Assembly (NCBI RefSeq): GCF_053078305.1
Contig: NZ_CP166879.1
Strand: one strand, 5' to 3'
DNA length: 64,000 bases
Part shown: positions 2,759 through 29,688 of the stretch, in pieces
Layout: each line of letters begins with the position of its first letter
Numbering within the stretch: position 1 is the first letter of the stretch
Notes under the pieces: model-generated
Told to the model about the DNA's origin: nothing
Databases searched by the model: none
Seen by the model: the letters and a program-made list of their open reading frames with translations, nothing else
Position numbers and translations under genes: made by a program

Positions 2759-3451
2759 TTAACCATGCTTCCTGTACGTCTGAGGCATGCTCCCGATGAC
2801 CTTACCGAAGATGAATACACGGTTCATCTCGTCTTTCTCGATTGGGTCCCATGGTGAATAGCTCTTGTTGTCAGAGATAACCAGCAGCTTATCCTTCATC
2901 ATTTGAAGGCGCTTAACATGGGCCGTATCGTCGTAAAGGAACGCATAAATCCCGTCGCCGTCGAAAGATTTGATGGCGATATCGACGAACAGCAAGTCAC
3001 CCGGTTCGATCGTTCCTGACATGCTGTCACCGCGTACGTTAATGATGCGGATATTTTCTGCCTTCCTGCCATCGAACATGTGACGAGCATCGTCAAACGA
3101 GTACTCAACCGAGCGTAGGACTTCTACAAACTCACGGTTGATGACACCCGGCCCAGCACTGACTTCTATATCAAGAACGTCAATCTTGAAGTATTTGGAA
3201 TGGTTGACAGTAGGCTTCCCTGATTGTTGACCGTCATTTCTCATCGGGCCTATGCCTGATGAGAGCCACTCTGTTCGAACACCCAATGCATTAGCTATTT
3301 CAACAATTTTTGTTGAGCCGCGCGCGTTGCCGCTTGTCAGTCTCCAGATTGTGGGTTGAGCTACGCCAGACGCCTTTGCAAGAGCGCCTTGAGACATTCC
3401 AGATTGTTCCATCGCTAGGTTTAAGCGATCAGCAAGAGTTTCTTTTTTCAT
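2759..3451 (-). CDS. cI: CI-type prophage repressor (HTH plus LexA-like S24 peptidase domain)
   Basis: N-terminal HTH (MSQGALAKASGVAQPTIWRL), Ala-Gly cleavage site (VSAGPG), GDSM Ser motif and downstream KR Lys. ATG at 3451 preferred over the TTG at 3487 used by the ORF track. Confidence 0.85.
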   Translation of the reverse strand: MKKETLADRLNLAMEQSGMSQGALAKASGVAQPTIWRLTSGNARGSTKIVEIANALGVRTEWLSSGIGPMRNDGQQSGKPTVNHSKYFKIDVLDIEVSAGPGVINREFVEVLRSVEYSFDDARHMFDGRKAENIRIINVRGDSMSGTIEPGDLLFVDIAIKSFDGDGIYAFLYDDTAHVKRLQMMKDKLLVISDNKSYSPWDPIEKDEMNRVFIFGKVIGSMPQTYRKHG

Positions 3452-3495
3452 AAGTTTTAATTTATACGCTTGCGTATTGATGGTCAAAACACGTT

Positions 3496-3529
3496 TTGCT
3501 ATTGCTATGGTTAATACGCATTGCTATTA
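3496..3529. promoter_or_regulatory. Putative OR operator cluster in the divergent cI/cro promoter region
   Basis: ttgctattgctatggttaatacgcattgctatta lies between divergent cI and cro and matches the OL-like motif at 824-863. Confidence 0.45.
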
Positions 3530-14149: not shown

Positions 14150-14375
14150 GGCCAACGGGTCCTTTCCGGCGATCCGACAGGTTACGGGGCGGCGACCTCG
14201 CGGGTTTTCGCTATTTATGAAAATTTTCCGGTTTAAGGCGTTTCCGTTCTTCTTCGTCGTAACTTAATGTTTTTATTTAAAATACCCCCTGAAAAGAAAG
14301 GAAACGACAGGTGCTGAAAGCGAGCTTTTTGGCCTCTGTCGTTTCCTTTCTCTGTTTTTGTCCGTGGAATGAACA
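14150..14375 (+). promoter_or_regulatory. Helper prophage cos site (cosQ-cosN-cosB); cosN cohesive-end sequence GGGCGGCGACCT at 14187-14198
   Basis: gttacggggcggcgacctcgcgggttttcgctatttatgaaaattttccgg matches the lambda cos region as recalled and sits directly upstream of Nu1. Confidence 0.85.
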
Positions 14376-14895
14376 ATGGAAGTCAACAAAAAGCAGCTGG
14401 CTGACATTTTCGGTGCGAGTATCCGTACCATTCAGAACTGGCAGGAACAGGGAATGCCCGTTCTGCGAGGCGGTGGCAAGGGTAATGAGGTGCTTTATGA
14501 CTCTGCTGCCGTTATAAAATGGTATGCCGAAAGGGATGCTGAAATTGAGAACGAAAAGCTGCGCCGGGAGGTTGAAGAACTGCGGCAGGCCAGCGAGGCA
14601 GATCTCCAGCCAGGGACTATTGAGTACGAACGCCATCGACTTACGCGTGCGCAGGCCGACGCACAGGAACTGAAGAATGCCAGAGACTCCGCTGAAGTGG
14701 TGGAAACCGCATTCTGTACTTTCGTGCTGTCGCGGATCGCAGGTGAAATTGCCAGTATTCTCGACGGGATCCCCCTGTCGGTGCAGCGGCGTTTTCCGGA
14801 ACTGGAAAACCGACATGTTGATTTCCTGAAACGGGATATCATCAAAGCCATGAACAAAGCAGCCGCGCTGGATGAACTGATACCGGGGTTGCTGA

Positions 14896-14921
<26 letters not shown>
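14376..14921 (+). CDS. Nu1: Terminase small subunit Nu1
   Basis: 181-aa protein near-identical to lambda Nu1 as recalled (MEVNKKQLADIFGASIRTIQNWQEQGMPVLRGGGKGNEVLYDSAAV...). Confidence 0.95.
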
Positions 14922-17850
<2,929 letters not shown>

Positions 17851-17977
17851 TTATGTCTATCATCTCCCCGTAGTTGTCCGCATCGTTCGCCAACTCCACT
17901 GAAACCCTTGCTGCGGCTGGAATGTCGTTTTCCATACTTTTGATGACCGTTCATCACACTTCCAGGTTTTCGCGGTT

Positions 17978-18031
17978 TTGTGTATTGCAATGTGTATTGC
18001 AAATTGGCGATCGGGATGGGTGTGTATTGCA
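17978..18031. repeat. Three copies of TGTGTATTGCAA upstream of the island integrase (attL-proximal, putative integrase binding sites)
   Basis: Copies at 17978-17989, 17990-18001 and 18020-18031; the same motif occurs in tandem at 29588-29610 near the other island end. Confidence 0.7.
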
Positions 18032-18050
18032 AATCTCTTGAGGGCTGTTA

Positions 18051-19292
18051 ATGGCTATTGAAAACAAACTCAGTGACAAACTGTTAAAGAGTCTTGTCGG
18101 AAAACGGCAGGACAAACAAAAAACAATAGCGGATGGGCGCGGGTTGTCTGTGCGTGTAAGCATGGTTGGGGGGATCAGCTTTGTTTTTTACTATCGTCTT
18201 GGTGGCAGGGAATCCCCTCCGGTATGGCTTACACTTGGGCGCTATCCTGATATGTCTCTTGCAACAGCCAGGCGCATGCGTGATCAGTGCCGTGAGTGGC
18301 TGGCTGAAAATCTGGACCCCCGCAGGCAAATAAAACTTGCCGCCGAAAAAACCATGCAACCAGTGACCGTAAGGGATGCGCTGTTTTACTGGTACGACAA
18401 TCACGCCACAACAGCCAGAAAAGAGCATGAATATTTAATAAAACGATTTGAAAAGCATATCTTCCCCTATATCGGTGATATGGCTATAGAACAGTGCAAA
18501 TTACACACATGGCTTGCCGTCTTTGACAGGATCAAAAAAAATGCGCCTGTTATGTCTGGTGCAATTTTTCTTGATATCAAACAGGCGTTGCGTTTTTGTC
18601 GCGTCAGGCAATACATCGCGTGCGATCCCTTTGGCGATATTAACGTAAGTTATGTCGGGCGCTCATCCGGTATAAGGGATCGCGTTCTTAATATCAATGA
18701 AACAGCGGATGTATGGTCTTATGCTTACGGTAATAATTTGCTGACACTGTCATCAATACATAACAGAAGAATAATGGTTATCTGCCTGGTGTTTGGTTGC
18801 CGTCAGCAGGAGGCGAGGTTATCCACATGGGACGAATGGGATTTAAAAAACTGGGTATGGACAGTCCCAAAAGAGCACAGCAAAAACAAGGAGGCCATAG
18901 TAAGGCCTGTTCCTGACGGCATAAAACAATGGCTCGTTAATCTTTACGCAGAAACAAAAAATCGCGGTTATGTTGTCGGTTGTGCTTTGCAAAGGGCGAC
19001 AATAACAGGGGCTGCAAACAGAATATGCAGGCGTCTTGGTCATGATATTAATGGCTTGTGGTGCATACATGATTTCAGGCGCACATTTTCCACTGCGCTT
19101 AATGATATGGGGGCGGATCCTTATATTGTCGAACTTCTTTTAGGTCATAAAGTGAAAGGGGTTGCCGGTGTTTACAATAAAAGCAGGCATATAAAGAAAA
19201 AACTTGAGGTGCTTAATATGTGGGTTAATTACCTTAATACGATAGCAGGATTTAACAACAACGTTATCGAGCTTAATAAAGAGGTGGTGTGA
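18051..19292 (+). CDS. int: Tyrosine integrase (P4-type, N-terminal arm-binding DUF4102-like domain)
   Basis: 413-aa ORF; N-terminal region resembles P4-family integrases; C-terminal catalytic motifs HDFRRTF, LLGH and VYNKS (Tyr). Confidence 0.9.
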   Translation: MAIENKLSDKLLKSLVGKRQDKQKTIADGRGLSVRVSMVGGISFVFYYRLGGRESPPVWLTLGRYPDMSLATARRMRDQCREWLAENLDPRRQIKLAAEKTMQPVTVRDALFYWYDNHATTARKEHEYLIKRFEKHIFPYIGDMAIEQCKLHTWLAVFDRIKKNAPVMSGAIFLDIKQALRFCRVRQYIACDPFGDINVSYVGRSSGIRDRVLNINETADVWSYAYGNNLLTLSSIHNRRIMVICLVFGCRQQEARLSTWDEWDLKNWVWTVPKEHSKNKEAIVRPVPDGIKQWLVNLYAETKNRGYVVGCALQRATITGAANRICRRLGHDINGLWCIHDFRRTFSTALNDMGADPYIVELLLGHKVKGVAGVYNKSRHIKKKLEVLNMWVNYLNTIAGFNNNVIELNKEVV

Positions 19293-19293
19293 T

Positions 19294-19551
19294 ATGGCAA
19301 TTTATTCTCTTGTTGATGAAAACGATTTGCGCACAATGAAGGACATTGATCGGTTCATTCGTGAAAAAGAGTGCATAGCACTTACCACGCTGGCAAACTC
19401 AACACGCTGGAAAATGGAGCAGGCAGGTAAATTCCCGCGACGTATCAAGATCGGTGAACGTGCGGCAGGGTATCGACTTTCAGAGGTTCAGGCATGGATC
19501 CGTGGTGAGTGGCATCCTGGATGGAAACCTGGAAAAACAAAACAGCAATAA
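19294..19551 (+). CDS. alpA: AlpA-family excisionase/transcriptional regulator
   Basis: 85-aa HTH protein (ALTTLANSTRWKMEQAGKFPRRIKIGERAAGYRLSEVQAWI) immediately downstream of int. Confidence 0.7.
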   Translation: MAIYSLVDENDLRTMKDIDRFIREKECIALTTLANSTRWKMEQAGKFPRRIKIGERAAGYRLSEVQAWIRGEWHPGWKPGKTKQQ

Positions 19552-19605
19552 CCAGTAAATAACGCCCCTCATCAAGAGGGGTTTTTGTCTATAGGGTAAA
19601 ACGCG

Positions 19606-20184
19606 ATGAATAAAAATATTGCCGTGACGGGCAAGGGGTACGCTCGTCCAGTGAAAAAATTCTGTGATATTCGTGATCTTGTCGTTCTGCGCTTTGATGG
19701 TGTGAGCGTTCGCGTGGTGTATGTGAACGGCGATCCGTGGTTTGTTGCCGTTGACGTGTGCGCTGCGCTGGAAATTGTTGATCACAAGGTTGCGTTACGC
19801 CGTCTCGATGATGATGAAAAGGGGGAGTGTTTAATACCCACCCCAGGTGGAAATCAAACAATGCGAACGGTATGCGAGTCAGGGTTCTACAAACTAATCG
19901 CCAGAAGTCGGAAAGCTGTTACTCCTGGCACGTTCGCCCGTCGTTTCAGTAACTGGGTATTCAGAAATGTGATACCAGGTATCAGAAAAACGGGGGCTTA
20001 TGGTATCCCGTGGGGGGCATTACAGGATTTTTCCCGCCGTAAAGAGCAATATCAAATAAGTGCCAGCGAGAAGGGGAGGGAGCTACAGGCATGTAAGCGC
20101 AAAAAACGTGAACTGGAGGAAGAAGAAAAAAGGCTGATACGTGAATATCAGCCTGAGTTTTACTTTGGTGAGCGTATTCAGTAA
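19606..20184 (+). CDS. Bro-N domain protein (prophage antirepressor-like)
   Basis: N-terminal Bro-N-like region (VRVVYVNGDPWFVAVDVCAALEI...FYKLIARSRKA) with a charged coiled C-terminus. Confidence 0.6.
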   Translation: MNKNIAVTGKGYARPVKKFCDIRDLVVLRFDGVSVRVVYVNGDPWFVAVDVCAALEIVDHKVALRRLDDDEKGECLIPTPGGNQTMRTVCESGFYKLIARSRKAVTPGTFARRFSNWVFRNVIPGIRKTGAYGIPWGALQDFSRRKEQYQISASEKGRELQACKRKKRELEEEEKRLIREYQPEFYFGERIQ

Positions 20185-20521
20185 CCACACGCGGTGCTGA
20201 TTATACGGTACATCGTGTTAACCGAGAAGCTACCCACCAGCAAGGCAAAATCTTCTGCTAAAAAATGACATATGGCCAGTCGTCCGGAAAGCATGAAATT
20301 TTACAAAAATGGAAAATGAAGATTTTTATTGTGCTGGTGGGTAAAAACAAAAAGCGCCCCGTTGCCGGAGCGCCCTTGTGAACAATTAACCTGCTGCGAA
20401 AAAATTGGATCAGTGCAGGGAAATTATATCAACTGTGTGAAGAAGCGCCACAATTGCCAGTTTAGCTTTGCGGCGAACGCGTCAATAAAGAATATTCTTT
20501 CTTTAAATTCTGTTTGTGTAT

Positions 20522-20551
20522 TTTTTCGTAGTTTTTCGTAGTTTTTCGTAA
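20522..20551. repeat. Tandem decamer repeat (TTTTTCGTAG)x3 in island intergenic region
   Basis: ttttttcgtagtttttcgtagtttttcgtaagg; a related palindromic motif cgaaattttcgtag occurs at 29194-29207. Confidence 0.8.
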
Positions 20552-20647
20552 GGAGAAAGAGCGGCGCGTATGCACCGCTAAGGAGTTTATTTTCATGACT
20601 TATGCAGCTTTCAATCTTAGCACCGCCGTAGCTGGTGGACAAGGCTA

Positions 20648-20875
20648 TCAGCCAGGCGGTCGGTTTTTAGTGGCTTTTAACCGCCGTGGGTATTTCTCGA
20701 CAAAATCTTCAAGGGCAAATTTTTCTGGTGGCACTAAGCGCGGCGCTGGTGGTGGTATTTTTGTTCTGGTTAGTTCTTCCTCAAGTCTGGCGCAGGCTTC
20801 TAACTGCCTTTGCCGGATGATTTCATCATCTTGCGTTTGCGTGTCTTGTATTGGTGATAGTGTGTTGTTGGTCAT
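20648..20875 (-). CDS. Hypothetical protein (island, leftward operon)
   Basis: 75-aa acidic ORF downstream of the RHH gene on the minus strand; weak RBS. Confidence 0.35.
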   Translation of the reverse strand: MTNNTLSPIQDTQTQDDEIIRQRQLEACARLEEELTRTKIPPPAPRLVPPEKFALEDFVEKYPRRLKATKNRPPG

Positions 20876-20932
20876 GATACTGCCCTGTAAAGCAATGCGC
20901 CGGAGTACCTCACGCCACGGCGCTGATAGTGA

Positions 20933-21238
20933 TTATTCTGATTCTTGGGTCTTGCGACGCTGGAGTTCTTCGCGTGCAACGGTGACAAGTTGCCCGATTT
21001 CTTCCGCTGCTTTGATGCCGATTTGTTCGACCTTAGCCAGAGCATCCAGTGAAGACACAAGGGGATTTTCTCCGCTGCCTTCTGCCTGGCGGCGGGCGAT
21101 TTCACCGCGCATGGCGGTTACTATGAATCCGGCGTTGCTTTCACCGTCCAGTTTTACGGATTCCATGCCTTCAATAACATCATGCGGGATCCGAGCTGTC
21201 AGTGATTGTGATTTTGCGTTTTTTGAACCTGTAGCCAT
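20933..21238 (-). CDS. Ribbon-helix-helix (CopG/Arc-like) putative regulator, divergent from the island rightward operon
   Basis: SLTARIPHDVIEGMESV resembles an RHH beta-strand plus helix; ATG 21238 with RBS gaggat preferred over the TTG at 21253. Confidence 0.45.
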   Translation of the reverse strand: MATGSKNAKSQSLTARIPHDVIEGMESVKLDGESNAGFIVTAMRGEIARRQAEGSGENPLVSSLDALAKVEQIGIKAAEEIGQLVTVAREELQRRKTQESE

Positions 21239-21797
21239 CTGTAATCCTCTCAATGAAAGTGTAAGACAATATACACATAAAAAGTCTTACATAAAAGCAT
21301 TGACATGTAAGCCACCTATAAATAAAGTTACTTACACCTTGTTAATGCAAGGTGCAGAAACGACGAAACCCGGCAGTGCGCTAACACTAACCGGGCTTCT
21401 AACCACCAACGATAGAAAGCGTATCGAGGTAGCTATGAGAAATCATACCACACACCCGCAAGGGCGGGACTCGCACAACCTGAATAAATACATCTGGCGT
21501 TTTCTGGCCCGAAAAAACCAGTTGATCGCCAGTGTCGAAAATAGCTATGATTCCCGCGCACCTCATAAAACGGGTGCCGGGATTGGCGTCCTGGGCAAAA
21601 CTGAAGCGCATAACACGCGCCCCGCGTGTTTTTTTGTGCCGCATAGTCACACCTTATCAATGGTGGGCTGTACGGGGGCGGAGCAATCCGCGCCGGTTTC
21701 TTCAGTGTCCGGTTACGCCAACCCTGTACAGTCCGCCACCAGCGAAATTGGCGTTTCCGGTGGCGGTTATCTTAACCACACTGAGGAGGCTGCCAAC

Positions 21798-21989
21798 ATG
21801 GCTACTATCCCTACCCTTGTACATTCTCAAACCGCCTTTCTCTGGCGCTTTATCATCTTTGGCGCGTCAGACCATCAAATCATCCACGTCACCGCCTGGA
21901 CGGAACGCGAAGCGCGTAGCCGTTGCCCGTCCGGTTGTGTTGCTGTATTCGCCGCCCGTATTCGTCAGGAGGTGTGCCATGTGCAATAA
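21798..21989 (+). CDS. Icd-like small protein (host cell-division inhibitor family, tentative)
   Basis: 63-aa ORF with strong RBS gaggagg; MATIPTLVHSQTAFLWRFIIFGASDHQIIHV... recalled as resembling Icd-like proteins of P4-type islands; it is the only plausible part of ORF 20595-21989. Confidence 0.4.
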   Translation: MATIPTLVHSQTAFLWRFIIFGASDHQIIHVTAWTEREARSRCPSGCVAVFAARIRQEVCHVQ

Positions 21990-22431
21990 AACCACACCGG
22001 ACGCAGCCGCCGCGCTCACTACACTGATGCACGCGCTGATTGATATTTCTGTTATTGCTGACAGGGCGCATAAGCACGCCACCAGTGAAACAGAATATGC
22101 CGGGGCTTTCGTTCCTCATTCGCTGGCGGTTATGCAACTTAGTGCTGATATGGCGCTGAATGAGGCCAAAGCTATCCTGATTTCTGATTGTGAAAATGGG
22201 GGGGGGGTTATGCGTGATGATCGTTTTAATGCCCTGAAACAGGAGTTTGATGGTGCGCCTGATGATGCAGGTGATGCGCTTTCGTCAATATCCGAACTGA
22301 TAAGAGTGGCCTTTTTCTTACTTGGCACGAAAGAATATAAATCAACTGGAATAGACGTACTGAATATTACTGCTGATTATGCGGAATATATGGCAGAAGT
22401 GGATTTAAGAAAGATAACGGACAGGGGGTAA
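21979..22431 (+). CDS. Hypothetical protein (island early operon)
   Basis: RBS aggagg before ATG 21979; the upstream part of ORF 21532-22431 is rejected as a spurious extension. Confidence 0.5.
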   Translation: MCNKTTPDAAAALTTLMHALIDISVIADRAHKHATSETEYAGAFVPHSLAVMQLSADMALNEAKAILISDCENGGGVMRDDRFNALKQEFDGAPDDAGDALSSISELIRVAFFLLGTKEYKSTGIDVLNITADYAEYMAEVDLRKITDRG

Positions 22432-22432
22432 T

Positions 22433-22666
22433 ATGCGTGATATTTACCACGAAACAATAGACCGCGCATTTAGTGCCCTTGCTTACGCTGAAGGTATGTA
22501 CGAAATATTGCAAATGTGTCTGGAAACATTTGGCGATAATGAGCGTGATGTAAAGAAGGCGCGGATTATTAAATCACTGATAACTCTCCTTGAACCTGTA
22601 ATAACAGAGTTGCAGGAAATAGACTTATTGCACGACAGATATAACGAACAGCACACCGGAGAATAA
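22433..22666 (+). CDS. Hypothetical protein
   Basis: 77-aa ORF tightly packed after the preceding gene (start 2 nt after its stop). Confidence 0.45.
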   Translation: MRDIYHETIDRAFSALAYAEGMYEILQMCLETFGDNERDVKKARIIKSLITLLEPVITELQEIDLLHDRYNEQHTGE

Positions 22667-22671
22667 AAATA

Positions 22672-22971
22672 ATGAAACTTAAATATCCTGGCTTAACTGC
22701 CAGTGGCAACACTCACCCTAAATTTACGCGCGGTGATATTTACCGCGACCAGTACGGCGGCACGGTAATGATTAAGGGCGTGGCGGGACGGTGCGTAACT
22801 TACCGCCGTGAAGGCTACGAATATGATTGCGTGATGCCTGTTTATCAGTTCCGGCGTGATTTTTCTCTGGTACAGACCGCGCCGCATAACGTGCCCACCA
22901 GCAACGCCAGGGCACGGGCAAACATCCAGAAGCTGAAAACCATGATTAACGGATTCAGGGGTAAAAAATGA
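22672..22971 (+). CDS. Hypothetical protein
   Basis: 99-aa ORF; 3' end overlaps the rep start by 4 nt. Confidence 0.45.
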   Translation: MKLKYPGLTASGNTHPKFTRGDIYRDQYGGTVMIKGVAGRCVTYRREGYEYDCVMPVYQFRRDFSLVQTAPHNVPTSNARARANIQKLKTMINGFRGKK

Positions 22972-24377
22972 AACTGGCACCGAACGTAAAACGATTACCG
23001 AAAGATAAATACACCGAAGCGGTTATTTTTGCGGGTATTGATGCTCACTCATTCGCAGAGCATTACATCATTGCACAGGCCAAAAAAGCAGGCGATCCAG
23101 TCCCTCCCGTTTATCTGGGGCGTTATCAGTTAAGCGAACTGGATAACCTCCAGATTGTTGATGATGGGCGATACAGGGCGACGGTGATACGCGCCGGAAA
23201 TATTGAAGAGCCGCAGCTGTTAACCATCGCCACGAAACTGGCGAGCGCCGGAGTCCAGGAGGCGCGGCTACTTTCTGAAAATTTCGAATTGCTGGAGGAA
23301 TGGAGCGACCAGCTTCCACGGCTTAGGGAGGCATGGGAACGCGGGGAAAGCCTGGTCATGAAAAAAATTCCCCAGCGAAAAACCACGCTACCGATGAGCG
23401 TTGGATCTACCGGATACGACACACAGCTTGATTACGTGGTAAAGGGGATTATTCCGGCATCGTCGCTTTGCAGCATATACGGGGCGAGCGGTTCCTATAA
23501 ATCATTCCTTGCCGGATCGTGGGCGTGTCACGTTTCCACGGGCCGCCAGTGGGGAGGCCGCAGGGTGGCGCATGGCGCTGTTCTCTATGTGGTTGGTGAA
23601 GGCGGTATCGGCGTTCCGCGTCGTGTAAAAGCCTGGGAGGTTGTGCACGGTGAGCAGGTGAAAAATCTGTATCTGGTAAACCGTCCCATCTTTCCGGCTG
23701 TCCCGCTTGATGTTGATGAACTGGTTATTGCTGCCAGTCAGGTGGAGAGGGAAACGGGTAAACCTGTTCGCATGATTATTCTGGACACGCTGGCGCGTTG
23801 CTTTGGCGGCAATGATGAAAATGACTCCCGCGACATGGGGGCATTTATCCGTGGTTGTGACGAGCTTAAACGGCGCACAGGGGCTACGGTGCTGGTGGTT
23901 CACCATTCCGGCAAGGATGAAACAAAGGGGGCGCGTGGTTCCAGTGCATTTCGTGCATCACTGGACGCTGAATACCGGATACGCAGGGAGGACGCAGGAA
24001 GCGAAGCGCTGGTTATCTCATGCACCAAAATGAAGGACGCGGAGGAACTCAAAGAGGCTGCCTATGATTTGCGGGTGGTGGAGCTTTTTACCGACGCTGA
24101 CGGGGAGTTAATTACGTCGCTGGTGGTGGTGGATAAGCCGCGCCCTCCCGTTGAACTGGAGCGCATCGAGGAGGCAGGCAACAAGACGGAAAACCATACC
24201 GCGCTATGGGGGTGCATCCGTTCACGCACACAGAACGGCGACAAGTGCACGATCCCGCTGTTACGTGACGATATGAAAAAGCTGGGGTATGACACAAAAC
24301 ACCTTAAACGATGGTTAGCCAAACTGGAAAAAGACGACGTGATCTACATTGACGGTGATGATGTAGGACCACTGTAA
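22968..24377 (+). CDS. rep: Replication initiator/helicase (RepA-like AAA_25 RecA-fold ATPase with N-terminal primase-C-like region)
   Basis: Walker A-like SIYGASGSYKSFLA, Walker B-like RMIILDTLAR, and TVLVVHHSGKD; followed directly by an iteron array. Confidence 0.75.
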   Translation: MKLAPNVKRLPKDKYTEAVIFAGIDAHSFAEHYIIAQAKKAGDPVPPVYLGRYQLSELDNLQIVDDGRYRATVIRAGNIEEPQLLTIATKLASAGVQEARLLSENFELLEEWSDQLPRLREAWERGESLVMKKIPQRKTTLPMSVGSTGYDTQLDYVVKGIIPASSLCSIYGASGSYKSFLAGSWACHVSTGRQWGGRRVAHGAVLYVVGEGGIGVPRRVKAWEVVHGEQVKNLYLVNRPIFPAVPLDVDELVIAASQVERETGKPVRMIILDTLARCFGGNDENDSRDMGAFIRGCDELKRRTGATVLVVHHSGKDETKGARGSSAFRASLDAEYRIRREDAGSEALVISCTKMKDAEELKEAAYDLRVVELFTDADGELITSLVVVDKPRPPVELERIEEAGNKTENHTALWGCIRSRTQNGDKCTIPLLRDDMKKLGYDTKHLKRWLAKLEKDDVIYIDGDDVGPL

Positions 24378-24582
24378 AAAGTGGGCATTAAAAGTGGGAA
24401 AGGTGGGCGATTTAACGTAATTTTAACAAAATCACCCACTTTCCCACGTGTATATATCCCAAAAAGTGGGCACTAAAAAAATACCTATGAAACAAGATGA
24501 TATAAATCCCAAACTTCCCACGTTGGACGAAGTGGGAAAACGTAAAAAGTGGGCGAAAAAAGTGGGTAGAGGTGGGCAAATG
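24375..24582. repeat. Island origin of replication: iteron array with GTGGG core (AAAGTGGGCA/AAGTGGGAAA, direct and inverted copies)
   Basis: About 8 direct and 3 inverted copies of (A)AGTGGG(C/A) within ~200 bp immediately 3' of rep. Confidence 0.7.
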
Positions 24583-24831
24583 ACTCAAAAACACAGAGAC
24601 AGAACAGAGCCAAAATATAAAGCGTTAGACATGACAGAGCACGCTTTAAAGGTGGCAATCAGGGTAATAGACCGCCACACGCGGGAAGGATACGCGAAGG
24701 AACATCCCGACCTGATAAGCGCATTCATGACCACAGCGGCGGCAAACTTTGCCACGCTGACAGAACGGGAGATAGCCGAAGCGGAACAGGTAACAACCAT
24801 CAACGTTAAAACCGGAGAGGTGGAATCATGA
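24580..24831 (+). CDS. Hypothetical protein
   Basis: In-frame ATG just after the iteron array; the upstream part of ORF 24448-24831 overlaps the iterons and is unlikely to be coding. Confidence 0.4.
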   Translation: MTQKHRDRTEPKYKALDMTEHALKVAIRVIDRHTREGYAKEHPDLISAFMTTAAANFATLTEREIAEAEQVTTINVKTGEVES

Positions 24832-25238
24832 CAGCACAGATAGCCGCTTACGGGCGGCTGGTGGACGACCCGCAGGTAAAACAAACCAGCAAGGGCACAC
24901 CGATGACGCTGGCGCGTATGGCGGTATCTCTGCCATGCAGCCAGGCACAGGACGGGCAGGCTACGTTATGGCTATCAGTGATGGCATTTGGTAAGCAGGC
25001 CGACTTCCTGGCTAAACATCAAAAAGGCGATGTTGCCAGCGTATCCGGCACGATGCAGGTAAGCCAGTGGACCAGACAGAACGGGGAAACGCGGCAGGGT
25101 TATCAGGTTATTGCAGACAGTGTAATCAGTGCCCGTGCTGCCCGTCCTGGCGGGAGCAGACGTACAACCACAGGCACACAGGGTAATCAGCCACCAGCGG
25201 GAGGCGATGACCCTTACGGTGACGGTATTCCGTTCTGA
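24828..25238 (+). CDS. ssb: Single-stranded DNA-binding protein (SSB-like)
   Basis: OB-fold signature (LWLSVMAFGKQADFL...KGDVASVSGTM) and acidic C-terminal tail DDPYGDGIPF. Confidence 0.7.
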   Translation: MTAQIAAYGRLVDDPQVKQTSKGTPMTLARMAVSLPCSQAQDGQATLWLSVMAFGKQADFLAKHQKGDVASVSGTMQVSQWTRQNGETRQGYQVIADSVISARAARPGGSRRTTTGTQGNQPPAGGDDPYGDGIPF

Positions 25239-25248
25239 GGGGGTGACG

Positions 25249-25521
25249 ATGGTACATGACCGCATAGCGGAGGAACTCGAGGCAAAAGGCTTTTACCGGA
25301 GGGCGGCGGCGCGATGGGGTGAAGTTATGCAGCTGGTGGAGACAGACAAGGAACGGCATCAGGTTACGATGCGACGGCTGGAATGTTCCAGGAAGGCACA
25401 GAGGCCACCGGAGCCGCCGGATAACTTCGGAGACCTGAAAAAAGCAGTAGATCGCACTTATGCCGAAATGGGTATGGATGGTGTAAGCGATGAAATATGG
25501 CGTAATTACCCAGACAGCTAA
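25249..25521 (+). CDS. PerC-family transcriptional activator-like protein
   Basis: AEELEAKGFYRRAAARWGEVMQLVETDKERHQV resembles the PerC/Pch signature; RBS gagggg; real start internal to ORF 25129-25521. Confidence 0.5.
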   Translation: MVHDRIAEELEAKGFYRRAAARWGEVMQLVETDKERHQVTMRRLECSRKAQRPPEPPDNFGDLKKAVDRTYAEMGMDGVSDEIWRNYPDS

Positions 25522-25527
25522 TCAACA

Positions 25528-25549
25528 GCCGGAGAAATCCGGCTTTTTT
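25528..25549 (+). terminator. Intrinsic terminator (GCCGGAGAAATCCGGC + T6)
   Basis: Perfect hairpin plus T-run directly after the PerC-like gene; the identical hairpin recurs at 27802-27824. Confidence 0.7.
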
Positions 25550-25561
25550 GTACCCAAAAAA

Positions 25562-25598
25562 AGCCCGATAAGTACAGGAGGCATCTTATCGGGCTTTT
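25562..25598 (+). terminator. Second tandem intrinsic terminator
   Basis: agcccgataag...cttatcgggct hairpin followed by tttt. Confidence 0.55.
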
Positions 25599-25676
25599 GC
25601 ATATGAGGTTTTTTTGGTGCACTGACACACATGATCGGGGTAATCATTTCATAATTTGCAACACAACTCAACATCA

Positions 25677-25737
25677 TTGCACAAAATGCAATCCTGATTA
25701 TAATCAGAGCTGGATGAACATCCAGTTCTGATTTTTT
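25677..25737 (+). promoter_or_regulatory. Sigma70-like promoter followed by a hairpin and U-run, upstream of the island capsid/packaging operon
   Basis: TTGCAC (25677-25682), 16-nt spacer, TATAAT (25699-25704); hairpin ctggatg-aa-catccag (25710-25725) then ttctgatttttt. Confidence 0.5.
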
Positions 25738-25760
25738 AAGTCAAAGAGGAATTTCTTACT

Positions 25761-25967
25761 ATGGCTGAAGAGAAAAAAGGCGGTGTTTCGGTGTACATAA
25801 GCCCCGAAATCGTGGAGGTGCTCAAGCAGCGCCACAAAAAAAACTATGAGGCTGGCGTAGCGGCTGGACTGGATCCGCTGATGACGCCGGAGCCGTCGAT
25901 AGGTTCACTTGTGCGCTCTTATTTACTTGCGGCGCTTGGGATGCATAAAAATTATGGTGGTGAATAA
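25761..25967 (+). CDS. Hypothetical small protein (first gene of island morphogenetic operon)
   Basis: 68-aa ORF with RBS agagga; stop overlaps the capsid gene start. Confidence 0.4.
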   Translation: MAEEKKGGVSVYISPEIVEVLKQRHKKNYEAGVAAGLDPLMTPEPSIGSLVRSYLLAALGMHKNYGGE

Positions 25968-27022
25968 TGACAGTAAAAGCAATGGCACTTACAACTAACC
26001 AGCTTTTCGCGTACCTGAATCGCGGGGATATTGCAGAATTTAAATTCAGTCCGCTGTTTACCACGCTGTTTTTCCCGAACGTGGCGACCTTCAACACCCA
26101 GAACATCATGCTGGACACCCTGGACATTGAAGAGGTTACGATGTCAGCGTTCTGTTCGCCTATGGTGGGTAGTCAGGTCCAGCGCGATAAAGGGTACGAA
26201 ACCAGCACGATTAAACCAGGCTACATGAAACCCAAACACGAAATCGATCCAACAAAAACCATCATGCGCATGGCTGGAGAAGATCCGGCACAGCTTAACG
26301 ACCCTACCTACCGCCGTATGCGCCTGATTACTGGCAACATGCGCCGCCAGATAAACGCCATTAAAGCGCGCGTGGAATGGCTGGCGGTGAATGCGATAAC
26401 GACCGGAAAAAACATCATTGAGGGCGAAGGCATAGAACGCTATGAAATCGACTGGAAAATACCGGAAAACTGCATCATAGAGCAGGCCAAGGGTAAAAAA
26501 TGGTCCGAGCATGATAAAGATATTTACGATCCAATCTATGACATCGAACTATACGCAGATCAGGCAGGTTGCCCCGCCAACGTCATGATTATGGGCGCTG
26601 AGGTATGGCGCACGTTACGCAGCTTTAAAAAATTCCGCGAACTGTACGATCTTTCCCGTGGTTCAGAATCCGCCGCAGAACTGGCCTGTAAAAACCTGGG
26701 TGAAGTAGTGAGCTTTAAAGGCTATCTGGGCGATATTGCCCTTATCGTCTATTCCGGCAAATACACTGACAGCGACGGTACCGAAAAATATTTCCTTGAG
26801 CCTGATTTGCTGGTCCTGGGTAACACCAACAATAAAGGGCTGGTGGCCTATGGTGCGATTATGGATCAGGAAGCGGTAAGAACGGGCGCAACGCAAAACA
26901 TGTTCTACCCGAAAAACTGGATTGAAGACGGCGATCCGGCGATTGAGTACGTTCAGACGCACAGCGCACCGCAGCCGGTACCGGCAGATATTCGCAAATT
27001 TGTTACCGTCAAAATTGCTTAA
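25967..27022 (+). CDS. Major capsid protein homologue (diverged lambda gpE-like, HK97 fold)
   Basis: Collinear with the helper E at 32160-33185: FKFSPLFTTLFF / FKFDPLFLRLFF, KPGYMKPKHEIDP / TPGYVKPKHEVNP, DPTYRRMRLITGNMRRQINAI / DPAYRRRRIIMQNMRDEELAI. Confidence 0.8.
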   Translation: MTVKAMALTTNQLFAYLNRGDIAEFKFSPLFTTLFFPNVATFNTQNIMLDTLDIEEVTMSAFCSPMVGSQVQRDKGYETSTIKPGYMKPKHEIDPTKTIMRMAGEDPAQLNDPTYRRMRLITGNMRRQINAIKARVEWLAVNAITTGKNIIEGEGIERYEIDWKIPENCIIEQAKGKKWSEHDKDIYDPIYDIELYADQAGCPANVMIMGAEVWRTLRSFKKFRELYDLSRGSESAAELACKNLGEVVSFKGYLGDIALIVYSGKYTDSDGTEKYFLEPDLLVLGNTNNKGLVAYGAIMDQEAVRTGATQNMFYPKNWIEDGDPAIEYVQTHSAPQPVPADIRKFVTVKIA

Positions 27023-27033
27023 CGGGGGATTCT

Positions 27034-27369
27034 ATGGACACTCCATACATTGAGTTATTTGCAGGCAGTCAGCAGGTATCCACGACGCTGGTACATTTTG
27101 CCGCTGATGCTGGCGTTATTCAGGAATTTACCCCGCTGATGCTGGCGGACAATGGCGAGTTTAAGCCGTGGGATGGTCAGGAATCTGGCAAGGCTGTTTA
27201 TCTGACCTCGTACCCCGTGGACACGTCAAAGCAGAAATCAGCACAGTGTTACAAGACGGGGATATTTAATATCGCCGCCGTAAACTGGCCTGAGAGCGCC
27301 GACACTGACGCGAAAAAATGCGCCGCCTTTGCGGGTTCTGGCGTATCCGTTCAGCCGCTGGCGCGATAA
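27034..27369 (+). CDS. Head decoration protein homologue (diverged lambda gpD-like)
   Basis: 111 aa; TPLMLADNGEFKPWDG...AAFAGSGVSV parallels the helper D (31766-32104) [17 protein letters not shown]...[11 protein letters not shown]. Confidence 0.7.
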   Translation: MDTPYIELFAGSQQVSTTLVHFAADAGVIQEFTPLMLADNGEFKPWDGQESGKAVYLTSYPVDTSKQKSAQCYKTGIFNIAAVNWPESADTDAKKCAAFAGSGVSVQPLAR

Positions 27370-27381
27370 GCAGGGGAAACG

Positions 27382-27795
27382 ATGGCAACGAATGAAAGCA
27401 TCATGGCGCTACCGCTGGCGAGTAAATTTAAAGCAGAAGCGCGGGCAATGGCTGACAGAGGTTTATCAACCTACGAGGCCGTATATCAACTCAACAAACT
27501 GGAAGAGCAGGACAAGCCGCGCGCTGATGCGATTATGGCGCTTCATGAACATAACGACTATCAGCCGCTGTTACGTGCAATGGCAAACGTGCCATGTATT
27601 AGCGTCGATAATGCTCGTGAAATCCTGAACATGACCATAGAGCAGGAGCGCCCAAAGGTTGCGCCGGAGCTTACCGCAGCCTTTGAAAACTTTATGGACA
27701 TGCACAGCCCGAAAGCCGTATCACCCGGCATGGCATACGACGGCAGAAACCAGGGCGATGAAGGCGACGTCGATCGCATACTGAAAACCATCTGA
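27382..27795 (+). CDS. Hypothetical protein (island morphogenetic operon)
   Basis: 137-aa ORF followed by a strong terminator; no family recognised. Confidence 0.45.
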   Translation: MATNESIMALPLASKFKAEARAMADRGLSTYEAVYQLNKLEEQDKPRADAIMALHEHNDYQPLLRAMANVPCISVDNAREILNMTIEQERPKVAPELTAAFENFMDMHSPKAVSPGMAYDGRNQGDEGDVDRILKTI

Positions 27796-27801
27796 CATAA
27801 G

Positions 27802-27824
27802 GCCGGAGAAATCCGGCTTTTTTT
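27802..27824 (+). terminator. Intrinsic terminator (GCCGGAGAAATCCGGC + T7)
   Basis: Same hairpin as at 25528; ends the capsid operon just before the island cos. Confidence 0.7.
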
Positions 27825-27825
27825 A

Positions 27826-27895
27826 CGGGTCCTTTCCGGCATATGGACCCGTTACGGGGCGGCGACCTCGCGGTTTTTCGCTATTTATGAGCTTT
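27826..27895 (+). promoter_or_regulatory. Island cos site: cosN identical to the helper (GGGCGGCGACCT at 27857-27868), with a distinct downstream cosB-like region
   Basis: gggtcctttccggc...gttacggggcggcgacctcgcggtttttcgctatttatga aligns with the helper cos at 14155-14222, then diverges before terS. Confidence 0.7.
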
Positions 27896-28001
27896 TTTCG
27901 GGTGCTGGTGGTGGTTTTGTTTTTCGCTCTATCTCTATGAATAAAAAGGGAAAGATAAAACCAATACACCAACCTGAAACATTACTTAAGTGGGGATATT
28001 G

Positions 28002-28544
28002 ATGAAATCGCACCTGATGAACAAAAAAAACATGGCGCAAAGCTGCCGTGTAAGTGCGACAGCGTTCGACAAGTGGGGAGTGACTCCCGTTGAACGTAAA
28101 GGACGCGAGGCTTTTTACGATGTTGCCAGCGTGATAGACAATCGGGTAAGCAATGCAATTAACCAGGTTACAAACGACAAAGGCGAGATTGATGATGATG
28201 AACTCTTACGAGTCAGGATCAGATTACTGACCGCCCAGGCTGAGGCGCAGGAACTTAAAAACGAGCGCGATCGCGGTGACGTAATTGATACTGAGTTTTG
28301 CCTGTACGCGCTTTCAAAGCTGGCGAGTCAGATTTCTTCAATCATGGACAGTTTGCCGCTTACCATGCAAAGGCGCTTCCCGCAGATTACTCCCGCTATG
28401 CTGGATGGGCTTAAAAGGGAAGTGGTTAAAGCCTGTAATGCCAGTGCCACAGTTGCCGACAACCTCCCGAAGATACTGGCTGATTACCTGATGGAAACTA
28501 CCGGAGACGTACCGGAGAAGTTGCTACAGAAGAAAGGCGAGTAA
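28002..28544 (+). CDS. Terminase small subunit homologue (Nu1-like, divergent N-terminal DNA-binding region)
   Basis: C-terminal two-thirds collinear with Nu1 (LTAQAEAQELKNERDRGDVIDTEFCLYALSKLASQISSIMDSLPLTMQRRFPQI vs LTRAQADAQELKNARDSAEVVETAFCTFVLSRIAGEIASILDGIPLSVQRRFPEL); N-terminal ~50 aa diverged. Start 28002 chosen by RBS. Confidence 0.75.
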   Translation: MKSHLMNKKNMAQSCRVSATAFDKWGVTPVERKGREAFYDVASVIDNRVSNAINQVTNDKGEIDDDELLRVRIRLLTAQAEAQELKNERDRGDVIDTEFCLYALSKLASQISSIMDSLPLTMQRRFPQITPAMLDGLKREVVKACNASATVADNLPKILADYLMETTGDVPEKLLQKKGE

Positions 28545-28689
28545 CAGACGCGCAATTATTGAACAAAAGTAAGGCCCGACATGAAATCACCCAAAAATGC
28601 CTTTTTCATGCGTTTGTATGTCTGACCTTTTACGGTTTCGATATTATAAAAAACAAATAGTTACGCTCGAGAGGTACCGACACGCATTT

Positions 28690-28775
28690 TTCAGGAAAAT
28701 TTTCATAAACAGATAAAAACCGCGAGGTCGCCGCCCCGTAACGGGCCATAATTCCAGGAAGGACCCGACGACACC
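28690..28775 (-). promoter_or_regulatory. Second cos-like site in inverted orientation (cosN at 28725-28736, minus strand), helper-like flank
   Basis: Minus-strand read gttacggggcggcgacctcgcggtttttatctgtttatgaaaattttcc shares ttatgaaaattttcc with the helper cosB side; no terminase gene lies downstream in this orientation. Confidence 0.6.
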
Positions 28776-28800
28776 AGGCTATCAGAACGATGAGGGCACA

Positions 28801-29082
28801 ATGACAGAAGCCGAACTACTGGGATTAATCCGCTACGTTACCGGAATCAGCCAGCAGCATGACGAACAGGCCACGCAGCCGGACAGCGTGACCGCTGAAA
28901 ATTATGCGCGTGTTGTTGCTGAGGTGATGCGCCGTGATGGTATCCAGCTTAATGATGCAGATATGCGCGACATACGGATCCGCGTTCTTGAAATGCTGGC
29001 CTACCGTCGCCGCGTGCAGACGTACAGGGAAAAAGCAAAAATAACGTACCAGTGGAAGAAGCCGGAGCGATTACGGCGGTAA
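28801..29082 (+). CDS. Hypothetical protein
   Basis: 93-aa ORF near the right island end; no family recognised. Confidence 0.4.
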   Translation: MTEAELLGLIRYVTGISQQHDEQATQPDSVTAENYARVVAEVMRRDGIQLNDADMRDIRIRVLEMLAYRRRVQTYREKAKITYQWKKPERLRR

Positions 29083-29477
29083 CTTGCTGATATTCCCGAT
29101 AACGCAAAATTGCGCTCTGTCCTAACCCGTTGATATTTTCGGGAACAGCCAACGGCTGAGGCCGGAACAACGATTATCTTTCAGATAGTCAGAGCTACGA
29201 AATTTTCGTAGTTTAATTACTCGCCAGTTTATCGTTAACTCGTTGATATTTTCGGTAACCTCAATTTGAGGAGATCGGAAACATAACCCTTCACATTCTG
29301 AATGGTTATAATGACCACTCAGACCATCAAGGCAACCATAACGAACATCGTTACGGTTGGAGCTTTTACCCCACTGGGGGGAAGGTGCACATCTGGATCA
29401 TCATTACCGTGATCAAGGGTATGTAAAACCCACCAGCCTGATTAACTGTTAACCGGAAAAAAGCCAGGTAGCCAATC

Positions 29478-29501
29478 TCGATATGGGGATCCCCATATCG
29501 A
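29478..29501. repeat. Perfect 24-bp palindrome TCGATATGGGGATCCCCATATCGA
   Basis: Exact inverted repeat centred on GGATCC within the ~600-bp non-coding right arm of the island. Confidence 0.9.
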
Positions 29502-29587
29502 CATTAACGCCCCCTAGAACTGCGCATATCTGCATATAAAAACATCCACCAGCTTTATGACGGATGCCGCTCATCTGATAAATAATC

Positions 29588-29610
29588 GTGTATTGCAATG
29601 TGTATTGCGA
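29588..29610. repeat. Two tandem copies of (T)GTGTATTGC(A/G)A near the island right end (attR-proximal)
   Basis: gtgtattgcaatgtgtattgcga; same motif as the attL-proximal triplet at 17978-18031. Confidence 0.7.
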
Positions 29611-29688
29611 CTCCTTTAAACGATAGGTTTGAGCATTCGTAATGTACTGTTTTTAAATTTTATTTTTTCCTGTCTTTTCATAAAAGCC

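Follow-up and report, generated by a model that had tools for sequence, protein, structure and literature searches.

The DNA analysed here, referred to throughout as the window, is a stretch of 64,000 nucleotides (64 kb) that holds a lambda-like prophage with its Nu1 (14376-14921) and A (14896-16821) genes and a cos site just before them. The portal gene of this prophage, a homolog of lambda B, is split: its reading frame is interrupted at about 17855 and continues from about 29695, the split centring on an imperfect 13-bp core. Between these points lies an island of ~11.8 kb (17856-29695, plus strand) of the EcCICFT073 family of phage-inducible chromosomal islands (PICIs), the limits of which were set by the junctions and by the GTGTATTGCAA arm repeats at the island ends. 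The island has the arrangement of helper-embedded PICIs, which lie within one of the late genes of a lambdoid prophage and share a short block of att identity with it, and PICI insertion sites in gene B have already been reported (PMC10111431). The portal-integrase junction was found in 63 of 5426 complete E. coli genomes.

The genes of the island run in one direction and code for an integrase, an AlpA-like regulator, a primase, an SSB, a 137-aa protein, and homologs of two lambda proteins, capsid protein E and decoration protein D; with its cos packaging and a size within the ~10-20 kb range it has the make-up of an EcCICFT073-type Gram-negative PICI. The 137-aa gene is followed by a forward cos site (cos1), a Nu1-like terS, an inverted cos site (cos2), and a 93-aa open-reading frame (ORF93), a gene order shared by the relatives in RefSeq, which occupy other chromosomal sites. 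The terS gene (28002-28544, plus strand), located between cos1 and cos2, encodes a Nu1 homolog of 180 aa (phrog_57, E = 3.7e-51) with 40% identity to lambda Nu1 and 35% to phage 21 gp1. Over the ~45 residues of its C-terminus the identities are 38.6% to lambda and 33.3% to phage 21, values that do not discriminate and are too close for the large-terminase partner of the island TerS to be assigned from this region. ORF93 (28801-29082, plus strand) is a conserved gene with no assigned function (phrog_1561; 173 relatives in IMG/VR), the start of which lies 65 nt past the cosN 12-mer of cos2.

The capsid and decoration homologs, of 351 and 111 aa, are encoded within 25967-27795; in EcCICFT073, loss of the capsid homolog by deletion was without phenotype (PMC6092414). 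The similarity of the 137-aa protein, encoded in the same interval, to head maturation protease profiles (phrog_53, E = 1.5e-9) is to their C-terminal part and points to a Nu3-like scaffold.

Anatomy of the inverted cos site

The inverted site, cos2, spans ~28548-28766 on the minus strand, as defined by alignment to phage cos sites and by its counterpart in EcCICFT073, and comprises a complete cosQ-cosN-cosB series. It is convergent with the cos1-terS cassette of the island, tail to tail, with its cosB end adjoining the 3′ end of terS. A preliminary description of this DNA had proposed a second, inverted cos-like site at 28690-28775. The site is real, with an exact cosN, a full cosQ-cosN-cosB arrangement and homology to phage cos sites, and the reverse complement of 28690-28766 reads exactly as had been given, but those coordinates understate the element, as similarity to real phage cos sites continues for ~140 bp beyond the left edge, to ~28548.

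The cosQ heptamer GGGTCCT (28760-28766) lies 23 nt from the cosN 12-mer, a spacing that is equal at cos2, cos1, and the prophage cos; cosQ of the lambda family is a conserved 7-bp element (PMC4669245). The cohesive-end sequence of cosN, GGGCGGCGACCT (28725-28736), is an exact match to the 12-mer of the lambda/21/phi80 group. Within cosB, the positions of R3, I1, R2, and R1 were taken from the annotation of the phage 21 record, and all cos2 elements given here refer to the minus strand of the window. A gap-free alignment to phage 21 places a predicted TerS-binding element equivalent to R3, GCGTGTCGGTACCTCT, at 28670-28685, with a core (CGTGTCGGTAC) identical to that of phage 21 R3, followed by a predicted IHF site, TAACTATTTGTTT (28651-28663), identical to phage 21 I1 at 12 of 13 positions. 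The R2-equivalent, AAGGTCAGACATACAAA (28613-28629), located by the same alignment, is opposite to R3 and R1, and the R1-equivalent, TTTCATGTCGGGCCTT (28571-28586), is identical to R1 of phage 21. The site thus has the full, complex cosB layout of the lambda family: R3, an IHF site, an inverted R2, and R1. As no alignment gap occurs between cosN and R2, the cosN-to-R3 spacing of phage 21 is preserved.

When compared with the phage 21 consensus TTTCATGTCGGNCCTT, R1 and the R3 core are identical to phage 21 and R2 is weaker, matching 13 of 16 consensus positions. Three changes separate it from phage 21 R2, one of them within the GTCGG core, and these could weaken binding; the R2 of a sister island, unlike that of the window, retains the phage 21 sequence. 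At its far end, the phage homology gives out shortly ahead of the point at which the start codon of the phage terS falls; the 3′ flank of the convergent island terS is found there instead. The possibility that the inverted repeats R1 and R2 of cos2 serve as a terminator for terS was rejected, since no terminator-like site was present there: a scan of 27700-29700 found no intrinsic terminator (hairpin and T run, plus strand) past 28544, and returned only pseudo-hairpins internal to cosN and one minus-strand site at 29541-29568.

Comparison with the other cos sites of the window

Three copies of the cosN 12-mer were found in the window, at 14187 (plus strand), 27857 (plus strand), and 28725 (minus strand), belonging to the prophage cos, cos1, and cos2, respectively. 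The number expected by chance, with one mismatch allowed, is 0.17, and no shuffled sequence reached three. A resemblance to cos that arose by chance or degeneration, and that has no biological meaning, is therefore an explanation of practically no weight; beyond the short length of the segment first noted there is nothing in its favor, and it is opposed by the three exact 12-mers, by ~190 bp of gap-free homology to phage cos, by conservation across dozens of islands, and by the experimentally demonstrated function of a homolog (PMC6092414).

Site cos1 (27827-27990, plus strand), with cosQ at 27827-27833 and cosN at 27857-27868, has an island-specific cosB that contains GGTGGTGGTTTTG; this cosB1, type 0, does not vary among the 28 TerS-type islands. 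Together, cos1 and cos2 form a 72-nt inverted repeat (27826-27897 and 28696-28767) that is 82% complementary, with 798 nt between the arms. The earlier estimate that the two inverted cosN copies are about 870 bp apart was accurate, the starts of the 12-mers being separated by 868 nt.

The cos of the embedding prophage (14157-14375, plus strand; cosQ at 14157-14163) shares with cos2 the cosQ heptamer, the 23-nt spacing, cosN, an identical stretch between cosN and R3, and the R3-I1-R2-R1 architecture. They differ in the specificity class of the R elements, which are of the lambda type (CGTTTCC) in the prophage and carry ATGTCGG in cos2. The flank of cos2 that had been read as a helper-like cosB, ttatgaaaattttcc, is this stretch between cosN and R3 and not cosB proper, and the supposed resemblance of the cos2 cosB to that of the helper in the window does not hold, as the R sites of cos2 are of the phage 21 family and those of the prophage of the lambda type.

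Relationship of cos2 to phage cos sites

In a BLAST comparison with phage genomes, window positions 28571-28742 (minus strand) aligned to bases 1-165 of phage 21 and its relatives at 79.5-84% identity (E = 1e-31 to 4e-44), and homology to annotated phage cos sites extended over ~190 bp without a gap. From cosN to R1, cos2 is 79.5% identical to phage 21 and 83.7% identical to the cos sites of O157 and Nord58 prophages, which are located between the lysis genes and terS/terL and are thus working phage cos sites. The cosB of cos2 (cosB2) is 76-82% identical to the cosBs of the 21 family, which are 83.5-85% identical among themselves; genuine 21-family cos sites differ from one another by 13-15% over the span from cosN to R1. 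In complete E. coli genomes, the closest match was a sister island beside clpS (90%), followed by genuine prophage cos sites (83.7%). No sequenced phage was found to match the window cosB2 above ~84%, and two exact-pattern scans of IMG/VR did not find this exact variant in an extant phage, returning two island copies in a single genome. A scan with the 16-mer R1 was uninformative, since the matches listed were mostly chance environmental ones.

The genomic setting of cos2 differs from that of the 21-like cos sites (phage 21, the CFT073 prophage phi4 at icd, O157:H7, and Nord58), which are followed by terS and terL; cos2 is followed by neither, and its cosQ flank is island-specific, unlike that of the phage 21 family. 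Phages lambda and 21 have cosQ and cosN in common and are discriminated more than 1000-fold in packaging through recognition of cosB by TerS, while termination of packaging is independent of cosB (Feiss and colleagues, PMC4669245), and the TerS of phage 21 binds cosB-21 specifically (PMC9026076). By its R elements, the cosB of cos2 appears to belong to the phage 21 specificity class, and a 21-type TerS (gp1) would be expected to use it.

Since the prophage is of the lambda type, cos2 has no matching helper within the window. This bears on two of the functions first suggested for the site. Packaging of the island in either orientation was one of these, and packaging in the opposite direction is reasonable; efficient use of cos2 by the resident lambda-type prophage is not expected. 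A decoy that damages packaging of the embedding prophage fits poorly with the >1000-fold discrimination between lambda and 21 (PMC4669245).

The cos2 of EcCICFT073 and cos sites of other satellites

The site in the window is the counterpart of the published cos2 of EcCICFT073, and the kind of feature is already known; Fillol-Salom et al. named cos1 and cos2 in that island (2018 ISME J, PMC6092414; 2019 Mol Cell, PMC6739421). The cos.2 sequence published there (Figure S5) is the inverted site of EcCICFT073, and its cosQ flank is identical to that of the window. The order in EcCICFT073 is capsid gene c1499, decoration gene c1500, a 137-aa gene, forward cosN, rppA, inverted cosN, a homolog of ORF93, and phoQ, so that the two islands are alike in order, in the orientation of cos2, in the 35-nt cosQ flank (TCGTCGGGTCCTTCCTGGAATTATGGCCCGTTACG), and in cosN. 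They differ at three points: the cosB of cos2 is of the PhiR12-phage type in EcCICFT073 and of the phage 21 family in the window; the slot between the cos sites holds Rpp in the former and a full Nu1-like TerS in the latter; and EcCICFT073 lies beside phoQ, whereas the window island lies within a prophage portal gene.

In EcCICFT073, transfer by lambda and phi80 requires cos1 (PMC6092414, PMC6739421), and deletion of both cos sites abolishes island transfer (PMC6092414). A cloned cos2 supports plasmid transfer and deletion of cos2 raises lambda-mediated transfer, a site functional yet dispensable (PMC6092414), and Rpp stimulates cos1 only and not cos2 (PMC6739421). Those authors could identify no phage cosB in either cos of EcCICFT073 (PMC6092414, PMC6739421). 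In our comparison, its cos2 shared 96.8% identity over 158 bp with the cos of PhiR12 phages, where the matching sequence lies between Rz and Nu1. The icd prophage of CFT073, phi4, which is the natural helper of EcCICFT073, has a cos identical to that of phage 21 (L003, 39745-39935), and the PhiR12-type cos2 of the prototype is thus mismatched to its natural helper. No further papers on cos2 were found by full-text literature search.

Phage-type cos sequences in satellites have other precedents. In 11capE (Mageeney et al. 2023, PMC10111431), a PICI that likewise interrupts a lambdoid prophage in one of its late genes, a 258-bp segment of the cos region is common to satellite and helper at 90% identity (PMC10111431), a precedent for a phage-type cos in a PICI. 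It differs from the window island in having no terS and in being inserted in capsid gene E rather than the portal gene, and the phage-type cos of the window island, unlike that of 11capE, mismatches the embedding helper and is a second, inverted site beside a private one. The staphylococcal cos islands SaPIbov4 and SaPIbov5 are also satellites with helper-type cos sites, two putative ones in SaPIbov4 (PMC6092414), but their sequences are unrelated, their helpers are HNH-dependent cos phages, and their hosts are Gram-positive.

Conservation of cos2 and exchange of its cosB

Using ORF93 as an anchor, 80 related loci were retrieved from IMG/VR. With the window and CFT073 included, 50 islands had a lambda-type cos1, and 46 of these carried the inverted cosN at the same distance from ORF93; the remaining four were L044, truncated inside cosN, and L047, L049, and L054, without cos2 altogether. 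The 32 further loci had a different module and no lambda-type cosN. Absence or degeneration of the inverted copy in related islands, which the preliminary description had named as evidence against its proposal, is not the case for most relatives, and a recombination scar, as it had also suggested, fits badly with a site that 46 of the 50 islands keep in place with cosQ spacing and cosN intact and full R3-I1-R2-R1 layouts.

In L044, a TerS-type island (IMGVR_UViG_2721755653_000003, ~3400-3500), cosQ and GGGCGGCG are joined directly to the terS stop region, indicating that the whole cosB2 cassette was deleted. Among ORF93 islands without a lambda cosN (L020, L025, L026, and L006), a GC-rich sequence, CACGGGGCGGGCGGCGCGG, occurs in forward orientation ~200 nt upstream of ORF93 and may represent another type of cos.

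Six sequence types of the cos2 cosB were distinguished, each with its own triad of R3, inverted R2, and R1 at lambda-like positions. Among islands that agree in TerS and cosB1, three of these types occur, and identical TerS proteins are found with two of them. Islands with another cosB2 type are 85-100% identical to the window through cos1, terS, and ORF93 and 44-64% identical only in 28550-28700. The DNA-binding domain of TerS and cosB1 stay constant while the type of cosB2 changes; the candidate reading in which the island TerS binds cosB2 was rejected because this domain is invariant across the three types. The comparison suggests that cos2 is not a target of the island's own specificity factor, TerS; for Rpp, lack of action on cos2 was shown experimentally (PMC6739421).

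On its cosQ side, cos2 is 100% identical between islands and 60-69% identical to phages; with the cosQ side island-specific and the cosB side phage-like, the boundary of exchange lies at cosN itself. Types 3 and 4 of cosB2 gave partial phage matches only (75-82%), and types 1 and 5 had no cosB counterpart among cultured phages, so that the case for cosB2 having been copied from phages is strong for two of the six types only. Variation within types amounted to 11-24 variable positions in 253, too few for a test of purifying selection. The relatives embedded in portal genes are all in lambda-type prophages, and most islands with this integrase and portal-gene insertion have no cos2 or a truncated one; a cos2 matched to the embedding helper was for this reason rejected, and embedding leaves cos2 unexplained.

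Several of these results would also be expected if cos2 were a tolerated by-product, in which left ends of phage DNA cut at cosN anneal or recombine with the island cos during co-infection and repeatedly deposit cosB segments that last because they are near-neutral. The exchange boundary exactly at cosN, the loss or truncation of cos2 in several relatives, the EcCICFT073 experiment in which deletion of cos2 did not reduce transfer and in fact raised it (PMC6092414), the degradation of the window R2 relative to phage 21, and within-type polymorphism too low to demonstrate purifying selection are all consistent with such an origin. A near-neutral deposit is difficult to reconcile with a cos2 whose position is common to 46 of 50 cos1 islands, with intact cosQ, cosN, and spacing, or with a full and self-consistent R triad in every cosB type, and a site that lowers transfer by some helpers should vanish quickly unless something pays for it. 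We consider this explanation unlikely, although it deserves to be weighed.

Inversion between the two cos sites

Both orientations of the 512-518-bp segment between the two cosN are found in a subfamily that has no intact rpp or terS. The inverted segments are 98-99.6% identical as reverse complements and the flanks are 95-99% identical in direct orientation, and the existence of both orientations shows that the two inverted cos sites do recombine in nature. Islands L009, L046, and L073, when compared to L019, L045, L068, and L072, have opposite segment orientations, with two phage-like cosB modules back to back. None of the 24 TerS-type islands sampled was inverted, and the Rpp-type islands sampled had a uniform orientation in all but one.

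The inverted cosQ-cosN repeats could in principle exist for the sake of flipping, as the ends of an invertible cassette that switches the direction of cosB or the expression of terS, and the two orientations of the 512-518-bp segment in the Rpp-less subfamily are what such a cassette would produce. We regard this as very improbable given the single orientation of 24 of 24 TerS-type islands and of all but one of the Rpp-type islands sampled; a flip would moreover place terS antisense to a one-directional operon, and inversion is expected as a side effect of any inverted repeat.

A proposed role for cos2 in packaging

Given the cosB of cos2 and its variation between islands, the interpretation that we favor, at slightly better than even confidence, is that cos2 is a second packaging signal that 21-class helper terminases read directly, while cos1 and TerS serve for other helpers. 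We infer both the use of cos2 by 21-class terminases and the benefit in helper range. Once excised and replicated, the island would be packaged by two routes. If the large terminase subunit of the helper is compatible with the island TerS, packaging would start at cos1 and proceed rightwards. With a 21-class helper, the helper TerS would bind R3, R2, and R1 of cos2 and IHF would bind I1, the terminase would nick the cosN of cos2 and package leftwards, and it would stop at the next cos2 in the concatemer, since no cosQ-cosN in the right orientation comes earlier. The inverted arrangement may be what lets two cos sites coexist stably: inverted sites could only invert the segment between them, and with directly repeated sites, judging from packaging polarity, termination at the wrong site would delete the terS segment.

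Direct use by 21-class helpers is the most economical reading in view of the discrimination of cosB by TerS and of termination that is independent of cosB (PMC4669245). The rise in lambda-mediated transfer upon deletion of cos2 in EcCICFT073 is consistent with the site being costly with non-matching helpers. The weakened R2 of the window and the relatives without cos2 keep our confidence in this packaging role only a little above an even chance, and they leave a minor share to the tolerated by-product.

A further reading is an interference device, in which cos2 soaks up or misdirects the 21-class terminase and lowers helper yield, with island transfer secondary. The full phage cos binding array is present in cos2, PICIs of the EcCICFT073 family already hinder helper packaging through Rpp (PMC6739421), and, because the two cos sites converge, cutting at both would be expected to release a dead-end fragment of 870 bp. 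A terminase that initiates at cos2 would, however, package island DNA, which makes interference hard to separate from the packaging role itself; with >1000-fold cosB specificity (PMC4669245) it would be powerless on the lambda-type prophage of the window, and no such phenotype has been attributed to cos2 in the searchable literature. Interference as the main function therefore seems improbable to us, more so than the by-product. Bidirectional lateral transduction from the inverted cos pair was also considered and was dropped when no supporting evidence was found; according to published work, cos phages do not carry out lateral transduction (PMC12829572).

Extending the packaging role of cos2 to the family, we tentatively propose that these islands carry two addresses: a private cos1, readable only through their own TerS or Rpp, and a public cos2 with an interchangeable cosB cassette, copied from a recently met class of lambdoid phage and swapped at the cosN cut. 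A public cos2 might then address at least five or six phage classes, with inversion as the occasional price of coexistence, a generalization that we put forward as plausible though somewhat short of an even chance. If correct, it would explain the cos2 of EcCICFT073, and helper range would become readable from sequence.

The publications of 2018-2019 that described a second cos in E. coli PICIs did not settle what it is for; the cos2 of EcCICFT073 is dispensable for lambda- and phi80-mediated transfer, is insensitive to Rpp, and improves transfer when deleted. The bona fide phage cosB and its variation as a cassette between near-identical islands provide a testable reason for such a site, namely a second class of helper phage; if this is true, the phages able to spread an island, with its virulence or defence cargo, would be predictable from two cosB sequences. 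For the window by itself the gain is small, a further instance of an established feature in an established kind of satellite. Both the cos2 class of feature and PICIs embedded in late genes of prophages (PMC10111431) have been described before; the phage-type identity of the cos2 cosB, the cassette-like replacement between islands, and the natural inversions were not found in the searchable literature and appear, within it, to be new.

Other features of the island

Just downstream of the primase gene (24374-24566), three to four direct repeats of AAAAAGTGGGCA are present at a spacing of ~84 bp; these look like iterons of the island replication origin. A 45-nt direct repeat (TAACCCGTTGATATTTTCGG...) lies at 29123-29167 and 29236-29280, in the non-coding stretch that follows ORF93 up to the right island end, the copies being 73% identical and 113 bp apart. 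Four copies of the island, at ~11.8 kb each, amount to ~47 kb, which is near the size of the lambda genome.

The window is 99.99% identical, over the compared positions 22396-29723, to a contig of IMG genome 2617271340 (IMGVR_UViG_2617271340_000001; L005, L090). This genome contains a second copy of the island that is 99.7% identical and has the same cos2 type, and the right flank of this second copy is another lambdoid head-gene region, 84.5% identical to window positions 33806-34468.
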